The notes under the pieces are model-generated. The model had not been told where the DNA came from and searched no databases. It saw only the letters and a program-made list of their open reading frames with translations. From an uncultured bacterium (lineage in GTDB: Bacteria; Patescibacteriota; Minisyncoccia; Phycocordibacterales; CAIZLB01): a stretch of DNA of 37,357 nucleotides. Where the stretch lies: contig CAJBHC010000076.1 of the NCBI GenBank assembly GCA_903952785.1, forward strand, positions 1-37,357, read 5' to 3'. A program made the translations under genes and the position numbers. This document shows positions 812 through 25,710 of this stretch, one piece after another. Numbering within the stretch: position 1 is the first letter of the stretch; every line of letters begins with the position of its first letter.

Positions 812-1054
812 TTCCACAGTTTCTGTTTTTTTTGTGTCTTTTAATATGATTGAATTGTCGATCTGTGAATCGTGCCCTAGAAAGTGGACATTGACGATAT
901 CCGCTTTACTGGGTACAGTTCACTATAGTGTCACTTTATGTGAGTTGATACGGACTCTGTTCAAGCTACTGAACATAGTTGACGCTTAATTAACTCTTTT
1001 GTTTTACTTAAAATAATGTAAAATGGTTGTAATAATCTTTCCAAAATAATAAAA

Positions 1055-2242
1055 ATGTTTATATTTAAATCTCAAAAAGAATACGCTTTAATTGATGCTG
1101 GAAATGGCTTTAAATTGGAAAAATATGGTGAATACTTGATTGCAAGACCAGACCCTCAAGCTTTATGGCCTAAGGTTGTTATGGGTTTGTATGCGGGTAG
1201 TTTTGTGCCGTCCGTAGGAAGTGGTGAAAGTTTGAGTTTGAAAGCGGGGAGTGATAATTTAAATCTTTGGCCAAACATTGATGCTGTGTTTGCTAAATCA
1301 GGAAATAGTGGCGGAAGCGGAAGAGGGGTTGACCGTGGTCAAAAAACGAGTCAAGGACAGCAAACGAGTCAAGGTCAACGGCTACGAGATGACTCAGCTC
1401 ATAGTGATGAAGAGGGTGATACTGGAAACTGGATTAAGACAAGGACAATTCCAGAAAGATGGCCTGTCAAATTTGAGATGGGAGGTGATTTACCAGCACT
1501 CAATATTTATGCAAGACTAACTCCCTTTAAGCACACTGGAATCTTTCCTGAGCAATTTACAAATTGGAAGTGGTCAATGGATTTGATTAAAGAATCCTTG
1601 GATGAGTCAGGGGGCAGAGTTAAAAAATTCTCAAAGGAAAGTCCTCCAAAAATCTTGAATCTTTTTGGATATTCTGGGGCGGCAACAATCGCCTGTCTTT
1701 TGGCCGGAGCACATGTTACTCATGTTGATTCATCAAAAGGTGCCATAACTTGGGCAAATGAAAATGCAGAAATTGCTGGAGTGAAAGATGCACCAGTTAG
1801 GTGGATTTTGGAAGACGCTGTTTCCTTCATTAAGAAAGAGGTAAGAAGAGGAAATAAGTACGATGGAATAATCTTAGACCCACCAGCTTTTGGACGAGGT
1901 GCAAAGGGTGAGGTTTGGAAAATTGAAAAAGATTTTCTACCATTCTTGGAATTAATTTTTGAACTACTGTCTGACGATGCACTTTTCTTGATTTTGAATG
2001 GATATGCAGCAGGGTATTCTTCAATCGCATATGCACAAAACTTACAAAGTTTAACTGCTGTGAGAGGTGGTGTTGTTGAACATGGCGAACTTTGTATTGA
2101 ACAAGATCTGGGAGGGTTTGAAAAGCTGATCGGCGACAAGTCGAGTGGCAAGATGGGGGACGGGATGAGAGACAGAATTGCAGCCACTATGCCCGCAATT
2201 TTGCTTCCTTGTGGAATCGTCGCACGCTGGAAATGTGCTTAG
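1055..2242 (+). CDS. class I SAM-dependent methyltransferase (RlmI/RlmK-like rRNA methyltransferase family) with low-complexity insertion
   Basis: SAM-binding motif I-like LNLFGYSGAATIACLLAGAHVTHVDSS and motif IV-like IILDPPAFGRG. An N-terminal insert (GGSGRGVDRGQKTSQGQQTSQGQ) is absent from canonical members. Confidence 0.7.
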   Translation: MFIFKSQKEYALIDAGNGFKLEKYGEYLIARPDPQALWPKVVMGLYAGSFVPSVGSGESLSLKAGSDNLNLWPNIDAVFAKSGNSGGSGRGVDRGQKTSQGQQTSQGQRLRDDSAHSDEEGDTGNWIKTRTIPERWPVKFEMGGDLPALNIYARLTPFKHTGIFPEQFTNWKWSMDLIKESLDESGGRVKKFSKESPPKILNLFGYSGAATIACLLAGAHVTHVDSSKGAITWANENAEIAGVKDAPVRWILEDAVSFIKKEVRRGNKYDGIILDPPAFGRGAKGEVWKIEKDFLPFLELIFELLSDDALFLILNGYAAGYSSIAYAQNLQSLTAVRGGVVEHGELCIEQDLGGFEKLIGDKSSGKMGDGMRDRIAATMPAILLPCGIVARWKCA

Positions 2243-10001: not shown

Positions 10002-11975
10002 ATGTTAAAATATAAGCCAATGAAAAAGTTACTTTATATTCTGTGTTTGTTAATGCTTCTTTTGTCATTTCAATCAGTTGGTGCGCAGGCGGGCAAAAGT
10101 TACTACTACAAATCATATGATGTTGATATCACAGTTCAAAAAGATTCAAGTTTTAATGTCGAAGAGAGGCAGTTGTATTCCTATACTGGAAATTTTAATA
10201 AAGGGTACAGGAACATTCCATTCAAGGATATAAGTAGTATCTCTAATATTGAAGTAGTAGACGGACAAACTGGTTCTCCTCTTACATATTCTTCAAAAAT
10301 ATTAGAGAAAACTGATCCAAATAGCTGGGGTAAATATACTTATCATAAGAGTAATGGAGAGATGATTATTGAATGGTATTATGATCTGAAAGACACTGAT
10401 CATCTTTGGATCTTAAAGTACAAAGTGTATGGCGGAATAGGATACTATAAAGATTATGATGAAGTATATTGGAATATTTTTACAAATTATGATGTCCCAA
10501 TAAATTCCTCAACTGTTTATATTAATCTGCCTGCTAACAGCTTTTCTGCTTCAGATCTTAGATCTGCAATATATACAAGTGACGCAAATAATAATCCACA
10601 GATGTGGTACAAAGATTCTGATCAGAAAATTGATTACTTTACTGCTGGTCCGTTTTCTCCTAAGCAATCTTTTACAGTGTCTTTGGGTTGGCCTAAGGGT
10701 CTTTTAAATCAGTCTGATTTTTGGAAATATTGGCTTTTGACAAATTGGGCTTATCTTTCTTCTACTTTAATAATTTTATGGACAATAATTTATCTTTTTA
10801 TCTTTTGGTTACGCAGAGAGCTATTAAAAAAAGGCAGGGGCACGATAATTGCTGAGTATGAACCACCGCATAATTTACCTCCTGCTATGGCGGAATTGAT
10901 TGTCACTGAAAGAAATACCCCTCGAGCATGGTCTGCTACAATTGTTGATCTAGCGGTTAGAGGGTATGTAAAAATAGAAGAAGAGCCCATTACTTTTTTG
11001 AAAAAGATTATCAGAATAATTATTCCAATCTCTATATTTGTATTTTCTTTTGCCATTGTTTTTATTACTGAAGAAGTGTTTCCAGCCCCATTTATTGTAG
11101 GAGCGACTATTTTGATATTACTTTTTATTTCATTCAAAAAAAGCGCTGATTATAAAGTTACAAAACTCAAAGATTTTGGGGCTGATGAAAAATTACACGA
11201 TTATGAAAAGAGATTTTTACGAATAATGTTTTCGGGGAAAGAAAGTTTTAGTACGTATGATATGAAAACAGCGTCCAACGCTGATAAAAGAGGGCTTTAT
11301 TTAGAGATGAAAGAGTTAAAGGAGAAACTTCTGGAAGAGGTCAGCCTGGATGAATCATCTACATATGATATTCCGATAAGTAATCAAAGTAGTTTTAATT
11401 TTATTTACGCCCTACCTATTATTCTTGGATTTGTAGTATTTGGCATAATCATATTTTCTGGGGGCGTTGCTTCATATTTAATCTTAATTGCTGTTATCGT
11501 TTGGTCATATTTTACAATTTTAATCTTCAAGAGATACAACCCAAGACTTTCCAGAGAAGGCCTGATTCTGAAAGAAGAATGGCTTGGTTTTAAAATGTAT
11601 TTAGAGGTTACCGAAAAGTATAGAATGCAGAAATTGACTCCAGAGCTATTTGAAAAGTATCTTCCCTATGCAATGATATTTAAAATAGAGAAACAGTGGG
11701 CAAAGAACTTTGATTCTATTATTACAACTCCGCCTGCTTGGTATGGTTCTTCTGGTCAAATCACTAACGCTGGAGGTTTTGGGTTAGTAAATGGAGTTGG
11801 CACATTTGGAGCATCTAGTAGTAGAATATCTAATTTTTCTGCTTCAGCTTTTTCTTCCTCCTTCAGTTCAAGCTTAGCGTCTGCTTTTGCCTCATCAGGT
11901 GCGAGTGGTGGTGGATCTGGTGGTGGCGGTGGAGCGGGAGGCGGTGGAGGAGGAGGTGGCGGCGGGGCTAGTTAA
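10002..11975 (+). CDS. DUF2207-family membrane protein with poly-Gly C-terminal tail
   Basis: Signal peptide, a YDVDITVQKDSSFNVEERQLYSYTGNFNKGYRNIP N-domain, multiple TM helices, and a GGGSGGGGGAGGGGGGGGGGAS tail typical of DUF2207 proteins. Confidence 0.75.
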   Translation: MLKYKPMKKLLYILCLLMLLLSFQSVGAQAGKSYYYKSYDVDITVQKDSSFNVEERQLYSYTGNFNKGYRNIPFKDISSISNIEVVDGQTGSPLTYSSKILEKTDPNSWGKYTYHKSNGEMIIEWYYDLKDTDHLWILKYKVYGGIGYYKDYDEVYWNIFTNYDVPINSSTVYINLPANSFSASDLRSAIYTSDANNNPQMWYKDSDQKIDYFTAGPFSPKQSFTVSLGWPKGLLNQSDFWKYWLLTNWAYLSSTLIILWTIIYLFIFWLRRELLKKGRGTIIAEYEPPHNLPPAMAELIVTERNTPRAWSATIVDLAVRGYVKIEEEPITFLKKIIRIIIPISIFVFSFAIVFITEEVFPAPFIVGATILILLFISFKKSADYKVTKLKDFGADEKLHDYEKRFLRIMFSGKESFSTYDMKTASNADKRGLYLEMKELKEKLLEEVSLDESSTYDIPISNQSSFNFIYALPIILGFVVFGIIIFSGGVASYLILIAVIVWSYFTILIFKRYNPRLSREGLILKEEWLGFKMYLEVTEKYRMQKLTPELFEKYLPYAMIFKIEKQWAKNFDSIITTPPAWYGSSGQITNAGGFGLVNGVGTFGASSSRISNFSASAFSSSFSSSLASAFASSGASGGGSGGGGGAGGGGGGGGGGAS

Positions 11976-12128
11976 TTTATCAATGCAAGATAATTTTTAA
12001 GCATCGAATTTTTAAAAAAAATAGTAAAAGCAAAACTTTAAATAATTTGTTTAAAGATTATCAAACGCTAAGAGGGGTTGTAACAAAAAGTTATCCCCAC
12101 AAGTTCCACTAATTTCTCACTCACGAAA

Positions 12129-20960: not shown

Positions 20961-21110
20961 ATATTGGCAGTATCTTTTGAATTTATTGCCTACAATCAAA
21001 GATGAAAGCAATAAGAAGAATATAACATATTTTCAGAAAAAATCAAAAAAATGAATAAAATTGCCACATGCAAGTGAATAATGCTATGCTTGCATAGTTG
21101 TGGTGGTATT

Positions 21111-21197
21111 GGAGAGATGGCTGAGTGGTTGAAGGCACCGCTCTCGAAAAGCGGCATGGGGGAAACCTCATCGAGGGTTCAAATCCCTCTCTCTCCG
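21111..21197 (+). tRNA. tRNA-Ser (anticodon CGA), type II with long variable arm
   Basis: Acceptor GGAGAGA/TCTCTCC, anticodon stem CCGCT/AGCGG with loop CTCGAAA, long variable arm, T arm GAGGG-TTCAAAT-CCCTC, discriminator G. Confidence 0.9.
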
Positions 21198-21220
21198 CAG
21201 TTTTGAACGCAGTGAAAAAA

Positions 21221-21364
21221 TGCGGAGAGAAGTAATGCATTTATGCATTATGTGAGGGGTTTGAAAGGGTTCTCCCATATTTTTGGAAGTGAACGAAGTG
21301 AGAGCTTCCAAAAATGGGAAACCCGTACAGGTCCTGTAAGGACTAAATCCCTCTCTCTCCGCAG
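21221..21364 (+). ncRNA. tRNA-Ser-linked structured element whose outer stems reuse the tRNA-Ser acceptor and T-stem sequences (function unknown)
   Basis: P1 GGAGAGA (21224..21230) / TCTCTCC (21354..21360). P2 TAATGC-atttat-GCATTA. P3 GAGGG (21254..21258) / CCCTC (21349..21353). P4 is a ~20-bp bulged hairpin at 21267..21324. P5 TACAG-gtc-CTGTA. The 3' 21 nt exactly repeat 21181..21201. Confidence 0.5.
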
Positions 21365-21400
21365 TGATTCGCGTTTAAGATATTCTTTAGACACTCACAA

Positions 21401-25427: not shown

Positions 25428-25501
25428 GGGCGATTAGCTCAGTTGGCTAGAGCGCAGACTTGACGTGTCTGAGGCCACAGGTTCGAGCCCTGTATCGCCC
25501 A
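25428..25501 (+). tRNA. tRNA-Val (anticodon GAC)
   Basis: Acceptor GGGCGAT/ATCGCCC, D arm GCTC-AGTTGGCTA-GAGC, anticodon stem CAGAC/GTCTG with loop TTGACGT, T arm ACAGG-TTCGAGC-CCTGT, discriminator A. Confidence 0.9.
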
Positions 25502-25508
25502 CAATAAT

Positions 25509-25537
25509 AAAAACACATGAATTATTCATGTGTTTTT
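25509..25537 (+). terminator. AT-rich hairpin plus T-run directly after tRNA-Val
   Basis: AAAAACACATGAA-tta-TTCATGTGTTTTT is a perfect 13-bp palindrome. Confidence 0.55.
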
Positions 25538-25547
25538 ATTATCAATG

Positions 25548-25678
25548 GGGCGATAGGAAGTGCTTTTAAGCACTTCCGGCAGGGCGAGAAAAGCTTTGCG
25601 ATGTTTTGAGAATCTGAAGGATTCGATAAAACCGCAAAGGTATACTGGTTCCGTAGGAACCGAGCCCTGTATCGCCCA
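25548..25678 (+). ncRNA. tRNA-Val-linked structured element whose outer stems reuse the tRNA-Val acceptor and T-stem sequences (function unknown)
   Basis: P1 GGGCGAT (25548..25554) / ATCGCCC (25671..25677). P2 GGAAGTGC-ttttaa-GCACTTCC. P3 CAGGGC (25580..25585) / GCCCTG (25664..25669). P4 is a 17-bp bulged hairpin at 25594..25639. P5 GGTTCC-gta-GGAACC. The 3' 18 nt exactly repeat 25484..25501. Confidence 0.5.
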
Positions 25679-25710
25679 AAAGCTTAAGTAAAACAAATCA
25701 TACTCACCAC

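Follow-up and report, generated by a model that had tools for sequence, protein, structure and literature searches.

Here we report that a stretch of DNA from an uncultured bacterium of the Patescibacteriota (contig CAJBHC010000076.1 of assembly GCA_903952785.1, positions 1 to 37,357; the whole 37,357-nucleotide (nt) stretch is referred to as the window) contains two members of a large family of structured elements that make up the tails of tRNA genes in bacteria of the candidate phyla radiation (CPR; Patescibacteria). One member follows tRNA-Ser and the other tRNA-Val. Each ends in a copy of the 3′ segment of the tRNA upstream of it, carries the reverse complement of that segment further 5′, and holds a branched core with invariant bases in between. 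The family is linked to tRNA genes and derived from the tRNA 3′ strand, and its structure is selected on the tRNA-sense strand. Hereafter, D1 denotes the tRNA's own 3′ segment, D2 its downstream copy, D* the reverse complement, and P1 to P5 the helices of the element, of which P1 is acceptor-like and P3 T-stem-like (coordinates are given in Table 1).

At tRNA-Ser, D1 and D2 are the two window copies of an exact 21-nt repeat, AAATCCCTCTCTCTCCGCAGT, which runs from T-loop position 57 to the discriminator and four trailer bases. The first-pass annotation of this DNA had drawn attention to this repeat, and none is expected or matched in shuffles of the window. The 143 nt that separate the copies hold TGCGGAGAGA and GAGGGGTTT, which jointly pair with 19 of the 21 bases of the repeat: TGCGGAGAGA is complementary to TCTCTCCGCA, and GAGGG (21254–21258), at the start of GAGGGGTTT, is complementary to CCCTC. 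Both pairings, described earlier as reproducing the acceptor and T stems, are present in the minimum-free-energy fold (−67.8 kcal/mol, z = −8.6, 0/200 shuffles as good). They are longer than had been claimed: GGGGTTT takes in the T-loop bases AAAT too, which brings P3 to 9 bp. The overall shape was likewise recognized correctly as a minihelix with acceptor-like and T-stem-like helices, in which a hairpin substitutes for the D and anticodon arms and a large insert takes up the T-loop position. One of the proposed internal hairpins, TACAG-gtc-CTGTA, has to be redrawn: covariation backs GGTCCT-GTA-AGGACT (21330–21344) instead, and the TAC and GTA of the proposed hairpin are invariant junction and loop bases.

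The element 3′ of tRNA-Val, previously noted as having the same architecture, is indeed a second member (z = −6.7). Its sequence is unlike that of the Ser element and its fold is the same; the tRNA-Val repeat (25484–25504 versus 25661–25681) is identical at 20 of 21 positions. Common to both elements is the order P1, a single A, P2, one or two bases and P3, followed by a GA-rich junction, P4, UAC, P5 with a GUA loop and, directly, the repeat. Three further assemblies of this species, which encode an identical TrxB-like protein, carry the same Val element base for base. Two assemblies of the species (L147 at ~3065 and L148 at ~3053, corresponding to window ~25490) have an extra G/C in the T-stem/T-loop of tRNA-Val (CGAGCCCCTGT against CGAGCCCTGT) with D2 in the element unchanged; this extra base may reflect true variation or a homopolymer error.

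The best-conserved stretch between the Ser and Val copies, the 21-mer TACWGGTYCYGTARGRACYRA, was used as a search pattern and matched at least 120 metagenome stretches, the flanks of which displayed the same arrangement by eye. Building a covariance model and scanning metagenomes with it had been suggested by the first-pass annotation. Our model, R1, was built from 14 copies with both window elements in the seed, and returned 143 matches at E < 0.01 in ~0.97 Mb, many of them without the search pattern. In the window R1 finds the two expected sites and nothing else, with 108.2 (Ser) and 105.0 (Val) bits for these seed members; independent members score up to 121 bits. The copies mostly lie 10–60 nt 3′ of a tRNA on the same strand; such a tRNA ends at most 80 nt upstream of 88 of the 143 matches. 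Another 16 occupy the second or third place in a tandem array, 18 are truncated by the end of a contig and 21 have no upstream tRNA, including orphans with decayed remnants upstream. The tRNAs concerned represent 16 isotypes with 35 anticodons. Applied to 326 kb of unselected CPR loci, R1 detects one site, 3′ of tRNA-Ser(GGA) in a Saccharibacteria genome, so that 1 of 18 tRNAs there carries an element. A scan of viral contigs gave five bare 19-mer matches, with neither the architecture nor a tRNA, and no phage or plasmid carrier. Rfam 15 has no matching family in a gathering-threshold scan of the window and in scans of both elements at E ≤ 10 (a sub-threshold score is discussed below), and our literature search found no description of such elements in CPR.

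Covariation across the family is strong. Among 94 distinct sequences, 87.4% of cells are paired, a value somewhat inflated by fitting of the alignment to the model, compared with 62.2% in column shuffles; double changes occur in 33 of 35 pairs, and the covariation score is 0.419 as against 0.078 or less when the partners are slid by 1–3 columns. An independent MAFFT/RNAalifold run gave compensatory changes in 18 of 23 pairs. The best-supported helices are P2 (helix 3 of the model; 97% paired, 7/7 pairs covarying) and P5 (helix 8; 98% paired, double changes in 5/6 pairs). G-U and A-C combinations stand at 259 to 100 family-wide, and the sense strand of the window elements folds 7–9 kcal/mol better than the antisense strand. 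The earlier argument for a selected structure over chance is thus borne out by a structure of the single strand, strong covariation and the 143 copies.

The invariant unpaired bases are an A between P1 and P2, a G between P2 and P3, GAA 3′ of P3, (G)UAC(U) 5′ of P5 and GUA in the P5 loop; UAC and GUA, both invariant, are mutually complementary. A subclass comprising many loci (among them L077, L055, L020 and L116) has a small extra hairpin in D2 just 3′ of GA(U/A)A, as in AAGCGTACTCGCGG, with a UA(C/A)U loop and the changes GCG/CGC, GTG/CAC, GGC/GCC and CATG/CATG. The recurrent GATAAGCGTACTCGCGG after P5, which had been considered as the start of 23S rRNA, belongs to this segment and covaries as the extra hairpin. 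The motif GA(A/G)CGNAG(C/U)GA, that is, tandem G-A pairs around a 2-bp stem and a GNA triloop, is seen at P4 tips and also forms the loop that links the tRNA 3′ end to D* (window 21202–21220 and many loci); similar strings, GCGAAGCG and GCAGCG, are found in the core of the Escherichia coli RtT RNA discussed below. Hammerhead and hairpin ribozyme cores, mapped by hand onto the three-way junction, did not fit (the hammerhead CUGANGA is absent), and the Rfam ribozyme and intron models (self-cleaving, group I) had no match even at E ≤ 10.

Comparison of each copy with its tRNA established how the arms are derived. D2 is a copy of the tRNA from position 56/57 and in every case lies directly 3′ of P5. 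The commonest class of D2 is 18–21 nt long and ends 1–3 bases beyond the discriminator; other copies are only 4–9 nt long, contain small indels or include the extra covarying hairpin. The duplication has a constant left boundary, whereas its right end varies between 14 and 79 nt. D* reverse-complements tRNA positions 54–76 and the trailer, T-loop bases included, and P2 usually interrupts it where the T stem meets the acceptor stem. In some elements, such as that of L042, P2 is absent, D* is contiguous and P5 is a long variant. Where a tRNA stem has a G-U pair or a mismatch, the base carried by the element agrees with a Watson–Crick partner to the 3′ strand in 21 instances and with the 5′ base of the tRNA in 1, a count conditioned on D2 being equal to D1 and hence biased. 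At positions of disagreement between D1 and D2, D* pairs with D2 alone 39 times and with D1 alone 12 times; we set this count aside, since the alignment was fitted to D2 and a later change in the tRNA gives the same pattern, and a reciprocal analysis anchored on D1 points in the opposite direction.

Of 69 loci, 41 have a terminator-like hairpin ending in a T-rich tail as the spacer that separates the tRNA from D*, and 9 have the GA(A/G)CGNAG(C/U)GA loop in this place. With its A-tract and T-tract, D1–spacer–D* makes one long near-perfect palindrome; in the window, a 15-bp inverted repeat (21190–21204/21216–21230) is formed in this way at tRNA-Ser. D2 ends in CCA in 9 of 55 cases and the adjacent gene in 4 of 55, with discordant cases 6 to 1; this excess at D2 fits a tRNA-like 3′ end, the numbers being small. 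In 41 of 55 tRNA genes (L020–L139 and the window) the discriminator is followed by CA and one further base (CAA 25, CAC 7, CAT 5 and CAG 4), which mostly leads into the A-tract of the symmetric terminator hairpin. Hints at the site of insertion conflict (L042, L115 and the window), some pointing to the T-loop and some to a site 3′ of the native terminator; all of these readings are circular permutations of one unit.

ARAGORN calls only four true tRNAs in the window, and neither a tRNA nor a transfer-messenger RNA (tmRNA) over the elements; the Rfam tRNA model (RF00005) is absent from the matches at E ≤ 10 over both elements. A promoter scan gave a single candidate for tRNA-Ser and its element together, 5′ of the tRNA (Table 1), and no promoter-like site in the spacer between them. 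Neighbouring genes encode housekeeping proteins (ParA-like, Fur, TrxB-like and FtsZ), and no recombinase, integrase, transposase or reverse transcriptase is present among the genes flanking the elements.

Table 1 Features of the tRNA-Ser and tRNA-Val loci in the window
Feature	Position	Strand	Basis or remark
Promoter-like site (TTGCCA, 18-nt spacer, TG-TATGCT)	21061..21090	+	5′ of tRNA-Ser
tRNA-Ser(CGA), intact	21111..21198	+	ARAGORN; Rfam tRNA model, 58.3 bits
D1, tRNA-Ser's own 3′ segment (T-loop 57 to discriminator + CAGT), first repeat copy	21181..21201	+	
Spacer, GAACGCAGTGA loop type	21202..21220	+	Motif class
a5′ (part of D*), P1 5′ strand = reverse complement of acceptor 3′ strand + G73 + CA; TGCGGAGAGA	21221..21230	+	Fold
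P2 hairpin, 8 bp, UUUA loop, at the exit point of the D/anticodon arms in a tRNA	21232..21251	+	Fold
t5′ (part of D*), P3 5′ strand = complement of T-stem 3′ strand + T-loop 57–60; GAGGGGTTT	21254..21262	+	Fold, family model
J3/4 junction GAAA	21263..21266	+	GAA 97–99% invariant in family
P4, long bulged hairpin, tip with UGAACGAAGUGAG tandem-GA motif	21267..21324	+	Fold; P4 base covaries
J4/5 junction GUACA	21325..21329	+	UAC invariant in family
P5 hairpin GGUCCU-GUA-AGGACU	21330..21344	+	Fold; helix 8
D2, second 21-nt repeat copy; 3′ strands of P3 (21345–21353) and P1 (21354–21363)	21345..21365	+	
tRNA-Val(GAC), intact	25428..25502	+	ARAGORN, Rfam tRNA model
Perfect 19-bp AT-rich hairpin + T-rich tail, terminator-like spacer tRNA-Val/element	25504..25542	+	
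tRNA-Val element	25548..25681	+	Fold; family model, 105 bits
Val element, a5′	25548..25554	+	
Val element, P2	25556..25577	+	
Val element, t5′	25579..25585	+	
Val element, GAGAAA	25586..25591	+	
Val element, P4	25592..25641	+	
Val element, AUAC	25642..25645	+	
Val element, P5	25646..25662	+	
Val element, D2	25661..25681	+	

The closest precedent is the RtT RNA of E. coli (RF00391), which has the same plan without detectable homology. RF00391 scores 12.1 bits (E = 7.5) over 21238–21364 of the Ser element, below its gathering score of 45, and has no match on the Val element in the scan at E ≤ 10; conversely, R1 scores 6.9 bits on the E. coli RtT locus. The window elements therefore lie outside RF00391, yet are built alike. 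In the E. coli K-12 tyrT–tyrV locus, RF00391 identifies four RtT units (133–138 bits). One of these, a full unit at L145 1064–1195 (132.9 bits), lies in the tyrT/tyrV spacer and the other three lie 3′ of tyrV; the K-12 record annotates only one unit, as rttR. Each unit is terminated by AAUCCUUCCCCCACCACCA, which corresponds to tRNA-Tyr between the T-loop and the 3′ end. Its complement, GGGGAAGGAU, lies upstream and is followed by GAGAAG and a branched GC-rich core, and in the Rfam consensus structure the AAUCCUUCCCCCACCACCA/GGGGAAGGAU stem closes the molecule. RtT thus resembles the CPR family in lying on the same strand directly 3′ of tRNA genes, in ending in a copy of the tRNA 3′ end, in its upstream complement and closing stem, GA-rich junction (GAGAA), branched core and tandem GA, and in the possibility of tandem units (four in K-12). 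It differs in that the complement is only 10 nt long with the acceptor 3′ strand mostly unpaired, in that P2, P4, P5 and the GAA/UAC/GUA core are absent, and in its weak predicted fold (z = −1.1); its partner at the E. coli locus examined is tRNA-Tyr, compared with 16 isotypes for the CPR family. One RtT repeat unit encodes the small RNA rttR according to a statement in PMC3318445 that cites Bosl and Kersten (1991). The RtT structure has covariation support, including the tandem GA (PMC8250186), and the mode of action of rttR is described as unknown (bioRxiv 10.1101/2024.07.17.603846).

The first-pass annotation had proposed a search for empty sites, and one was found at both tRNAs in L001, the closest relative (84% amino acid identity in the ParA-like protein). 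L001 has the same gene order as the window (tRNA-Glu/tRNA-Ser/ParA … tRNA-Val/trxB), only a terminator 3′ of tRNA-Ser and of tRNA-Val, and no R1 match. The relatives identified through the ParA-like protein are genomes of uncultured bacteria, and the more distant ones are labelled Saccharibacteria, Paceibacterota and other Patescibacteria, which points to a CPR bacterium as the source of the window. L001 has an extra ~1-kb minus-strand gene with a hydrophobic N terminus between the ParA-like gene and tRNA-Ser (10960–12040, compared with window 21366–21400); its absence from the window makes this intergenic region a hot spot of gain and loss beyond the element. Tandem arrays occur in L059 (two units with differing spacers and P2 hairpins) and L083 (three units), the second unit is truncated in L132 and L089, and decayed copies are present in the family.

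The cores (P2 to P5) follow the tRNA more than the genome. The nearest neighbour of a core has the same isotype in 24 of 80 cases, as against 8.5% expected, and the best core pairs across contigs share the anticodon; the window Val element is nearest to the Val elements of L059. Core similarity between the window Ser and Val elements is 0.17, and ranges from −0.03 to 0.38 for different tRNAs on the same contig (Val/Arg and Lys/Arg pairs ≤0.04), whereas tandem copies at one tRNA reach 0.66–0.92. Since cores track isotype and are unrelated within a contig, they represent old tRNA-specific lineages, lost and duplicated locally. Such a pattern points to long-term persistence with each tRNA, and to no recent genome-sweeping transposon. 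An early suggestion that these might be miniature elements with guide-like complementarity accordingly holds in part: the arms are the reverse complement of the 3′ strand and a relative has empty sites, and there is no sign of recent spread within genomes.

On balance, the sequences lead us to favour an RtT-like structured RNA of ~140 nt that is made as the 3′ trailer of the tRNA; its action as RNA, its processing and its role are what we infer. Polymerase starting at the tRNA promoter would read beyond the tRNA and transcribe the element. Pairing of D* with D2 would then give a coaxial helix resembling the acceptor and T stems and closing the three-way junction. This tRNA-like helix, with a 3′ end close to a discriminator, would offer a second site to the enzymes that process tRNA ends, and a stable, discrete RNA might be released, as the statement cited above reports for E. 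coli rtT RNA. The conserved junction of GAA, P4, UAC and P5 would be the working part and would probably bind a protein. Recombination or replication slippage between the direct repeats D1 and D2 would allow precise loss or tandem gain of the element, and the patchy distribution would follow from this.

Several results weigh against this trailer-RNA reading. P1 and P3 are 73–89% paired, below the 97–98% of P2 and P5. The frequent terminator-like hairpin 5′ of D* means that the element would be reached by read-through only. P1 extends 2–3 bp beyond the discriminator; together with the lack of a tRNA-model match, this implies that the element is not a canonical substrate of RNase P or RNase Z. 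The same two results bear on the tRNA-like decoy or processing substrate that the first-pass annotation had listed as a possible role. The low occupancy of unselected tRNAs and the empty relative fit a dispensable or selfish element equally well. Finally, in predicted folds of transcripts comprising tRNA and element, the tRNA keeps its own 3′ strand in 0 of 68 cases. Instead D* captures D1, and the 5′ acceptor strand of the tRNA pairs with D2 in 36 of 68 folds and with D1 in none. The whole-transcript folds are 4–40 kcal/mol more stable than the parts folded apart (in the window, −112.3 versus −103.5 kcal/mol for Ser and −118.2 versus −112.6 kcal/mol for Val). In addition, among 31 copies that lack the acceptor part of D2, complementarity of D* to the tRNA persists in 27 (mismatched controls, 40%). 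The cis D*:D2 helix may thus not be the sole relevant pairing; the complementarity between D* and the tRNA could be a by-product of the origin of the copies, or the tRNA could be the real partner of D*.

Known systems share some of these features. Integrative elements that target tRNA genes at the T-loop sublocation also duplicate the segment from the T-loop to the 3′ end, leave the gene intact and are patchy in relatives; CPR elements differ in having ~140 nt between the repeats, no integrase and a covarying interior that includes the repeat complement. An acceptor/T-stem-like coaxial helix inside a larger RNA, which could recruit tRNA-processing enzymes, is likewise found in the tRNA-like domain of tmRNA, in the bacterial Y RNA YrlA and in mascRNA-type mimics, all of which keep a true T-loop and one fixed sequence. 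In the CPR elements, by contrast, the T-loop is replaced by a three-way junction and the helix sequence is copied from the upstream tRNA. Non-canonical T-loop tRNA introns and split or permuted tRNA genes occur in Archaea and red algae. Topologically, a CPR locus equals a tRNA with an insert at 56/57, but its upstream tRNA is complete, splicing is not needed and no bulge–helix–bulge motif was identified; to our knowledge, bacteria have no tRNA splicing endonuclease. Miniature inverted-repeat transposable elements (MITEs) are, like the CPR elements, small, non-coding and patchy, with inverted-repeat ends that form a stem. The CPR inverted repeats are instead tRNA-derived and site-specific, and every site is a tRNA 3′ end. 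Many near-identical copies per genome and element-specific terminal inverted repeats, as expected of MITEs, were not found, copies within a genome being dissimilar.

Of the other explanations, a homing or integrating miniature mobile element is doubtful but carries some weight. Here [D, spacer, D*, core] would move as a circle or an intron-like insert, entering at T-loop position 56/57 or recombining within D, with D* as a guide to the tRNA 3′ strand. The insert would supply a replacement 3′ end, often with a terminator, so that the tRNA gene stays functional, and would spread to other cells in which this tRNA gene is unoccupied. The empty sites in L001 and the fixed left and variable right ends of the duplication agree with such an element, as does a D* that is the Watson–Crick complement of the 3′ strand and reaches into the trailer and T54–C56, although the 21-to-1 count behind this is the biased one. 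Tandem arrays with differing spacers and P2 (L059 and L083), decayed and orphan copies, and a D2 with CCA where the gene has none, which could mean an RNA intermediate, are also in its favour. No recombinase, reverse transcriptase, transposase or phage carrier is associated with the elements, however, and their cores track isotype and are unrelated between different tRNAs of one contig; nor is there a known route by which both arms could be re-specified for a new tRNA. Entry at the T-loop in particular is hard to reconcile with the window, in which the spacer hairpin resembles a native tRNA-Val terminator and no terminator lies 3′ of D2. We regard as quite unlikely a strand-exchange switch, or T-loop bypass, in which D* would invade the tRNA through a toehold in the trailer and capture D1, and the intact D2 would re-form the tRNA body, so that a large insert sits in the T-loop of the resulting tRNA. 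In this way the element would control or mark read-through tRNA, as a T-loop intron without need of splicing. The predicted folds with their use of D2 and gain in stability, the D1–spacer–D* palindrome and the retained complementarity in copies without the acceptor part of D2 speak for it, as does the GAA of D*, which complements T54–C56 and has no partner in the cis fold. The folds are thermodynamic predictions alone, which ignore co-transcriptional folding, tertiary structure, modification and rapid processing, and GAA, which is kept in GAGAA variants whose neighbours no longer complement the T-loop, is probably a motif of the junction. Moreover, one would expect to meet a regulator of tRNA supply at fixed tRNAs, whereas the elements are scattered, and no bacterial T-loop splicing enzyme is known.

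Two other origins were rejected. A decayed tandem tRNA duplicate, that is, a pseudogene with a collapsed middle, is very improbable. Its acceptor-like and T-stem-like helices do match the neighbouring tRNA, and two loci (L098 and L024) have a rearranged tRNA-Gly 5′ part fused to the core. The 5′ arms, however, follow the complement of the 3′ strand and not the tRNA 5′ strand (again 21 to 1) and pair with T-loop bases and trailer as well; P2, P4 and P5 are conserved across tRNAs and unrelated to the D and anticodon arms, remnants of which replace P2 in 0 of 143 copies, and the tRNA model has no match on the element. The attL/attR scar of an integrative element, with fortuitous 5′ complementarity, had been put forward in the first-pass annotation and is barely credible. 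It would account for a direct repeat from T-loop to 3′ end, as at T-loop-type attachment sites, and one locus (L015) has a different, unstructured 49-nt repeat; but a covarying interior of ~140 nt, its junction bases invariant, is shared by at least 120 unrelated loci and by 16 isotypes, each copy contains the complement of its repeat, and the neighbours are housekeeping genes with no integrase nearby. A broader proposal, in our judgement unlikely, is that RtT and the CPR family are instances of one general class templated on the tRNA 3′ strand, acting by strand exchange and arising via an RNA intermediate. The 5′ arms may serve as an intrinsic antisense against the 3′ strands of the acceptor and T stems and D2 as a spare 3′ strand, and new copies may come from mature tRNA 3′ ends; a hint at such an intermediate is the CCA of D2 where the gene encodes CA-A. 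This proposal is consistent with the fold predictions, the kept complementarity to the tRNA and the 6-to-1 CCA count, each of which is indirect.

A few loci depart from the common arrangement. In L098 (3376–3640) and L024 (60–335, minus strand), positions 1–53 of tRNA-Gly(CCC) are fused to a P4/P5 core and a short D2 (57–64); beyond these lie the T-loop region copied in inverted orientation and, after it, an intact tRNA-Gly. This form, common to two organisms, looks like a tRNA with a T-loop insert upstream of a working copy. In L106 (720–1580), an insertion of ~830 nt separates tRNA-Ser(GGA) from its element; it contains a 169-amino-acid open reading frame (857–1366, minus strand) with a sub-threshold DUF7141 match and no informative domain, and by eye is bracketed by imperfect repeats of the tRNA 3′ end and spacer start (CTCCGCAG..GAGTGAGC). 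In the Patescibacteria locus L015 (19025–19280), tRNA-Ser(GGA) has a direct repeat of ~49 nt 114 nt downstream, which spans the T-loop-to-3′-end segment and the terminator and has neither the repeat complement nor the P4/P5 core; it represents another type of tRNA 3′-end duplication and may be a true scar or a product of slippage.

For genome analysis, tRNA 3′-end repeats of this kind should not be taken for integration scars, and contigs may break at them. The elements may be of use to the cell, may be selfish or may have their own tRNA as a target. If confirmed, the family would be a large and well-defined non-coding RNA family for Patescibacteria, in which few are known, and one tied to every kind of tRNA and not to a single gene. 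It would also give a first comparative context to E. coli RtT, which was described decades ago and has no accepted function, and the plan shared by RtT and the CPR elements suggests a convergent or very old use of tRNA 3′ strands for trailer RNAs.

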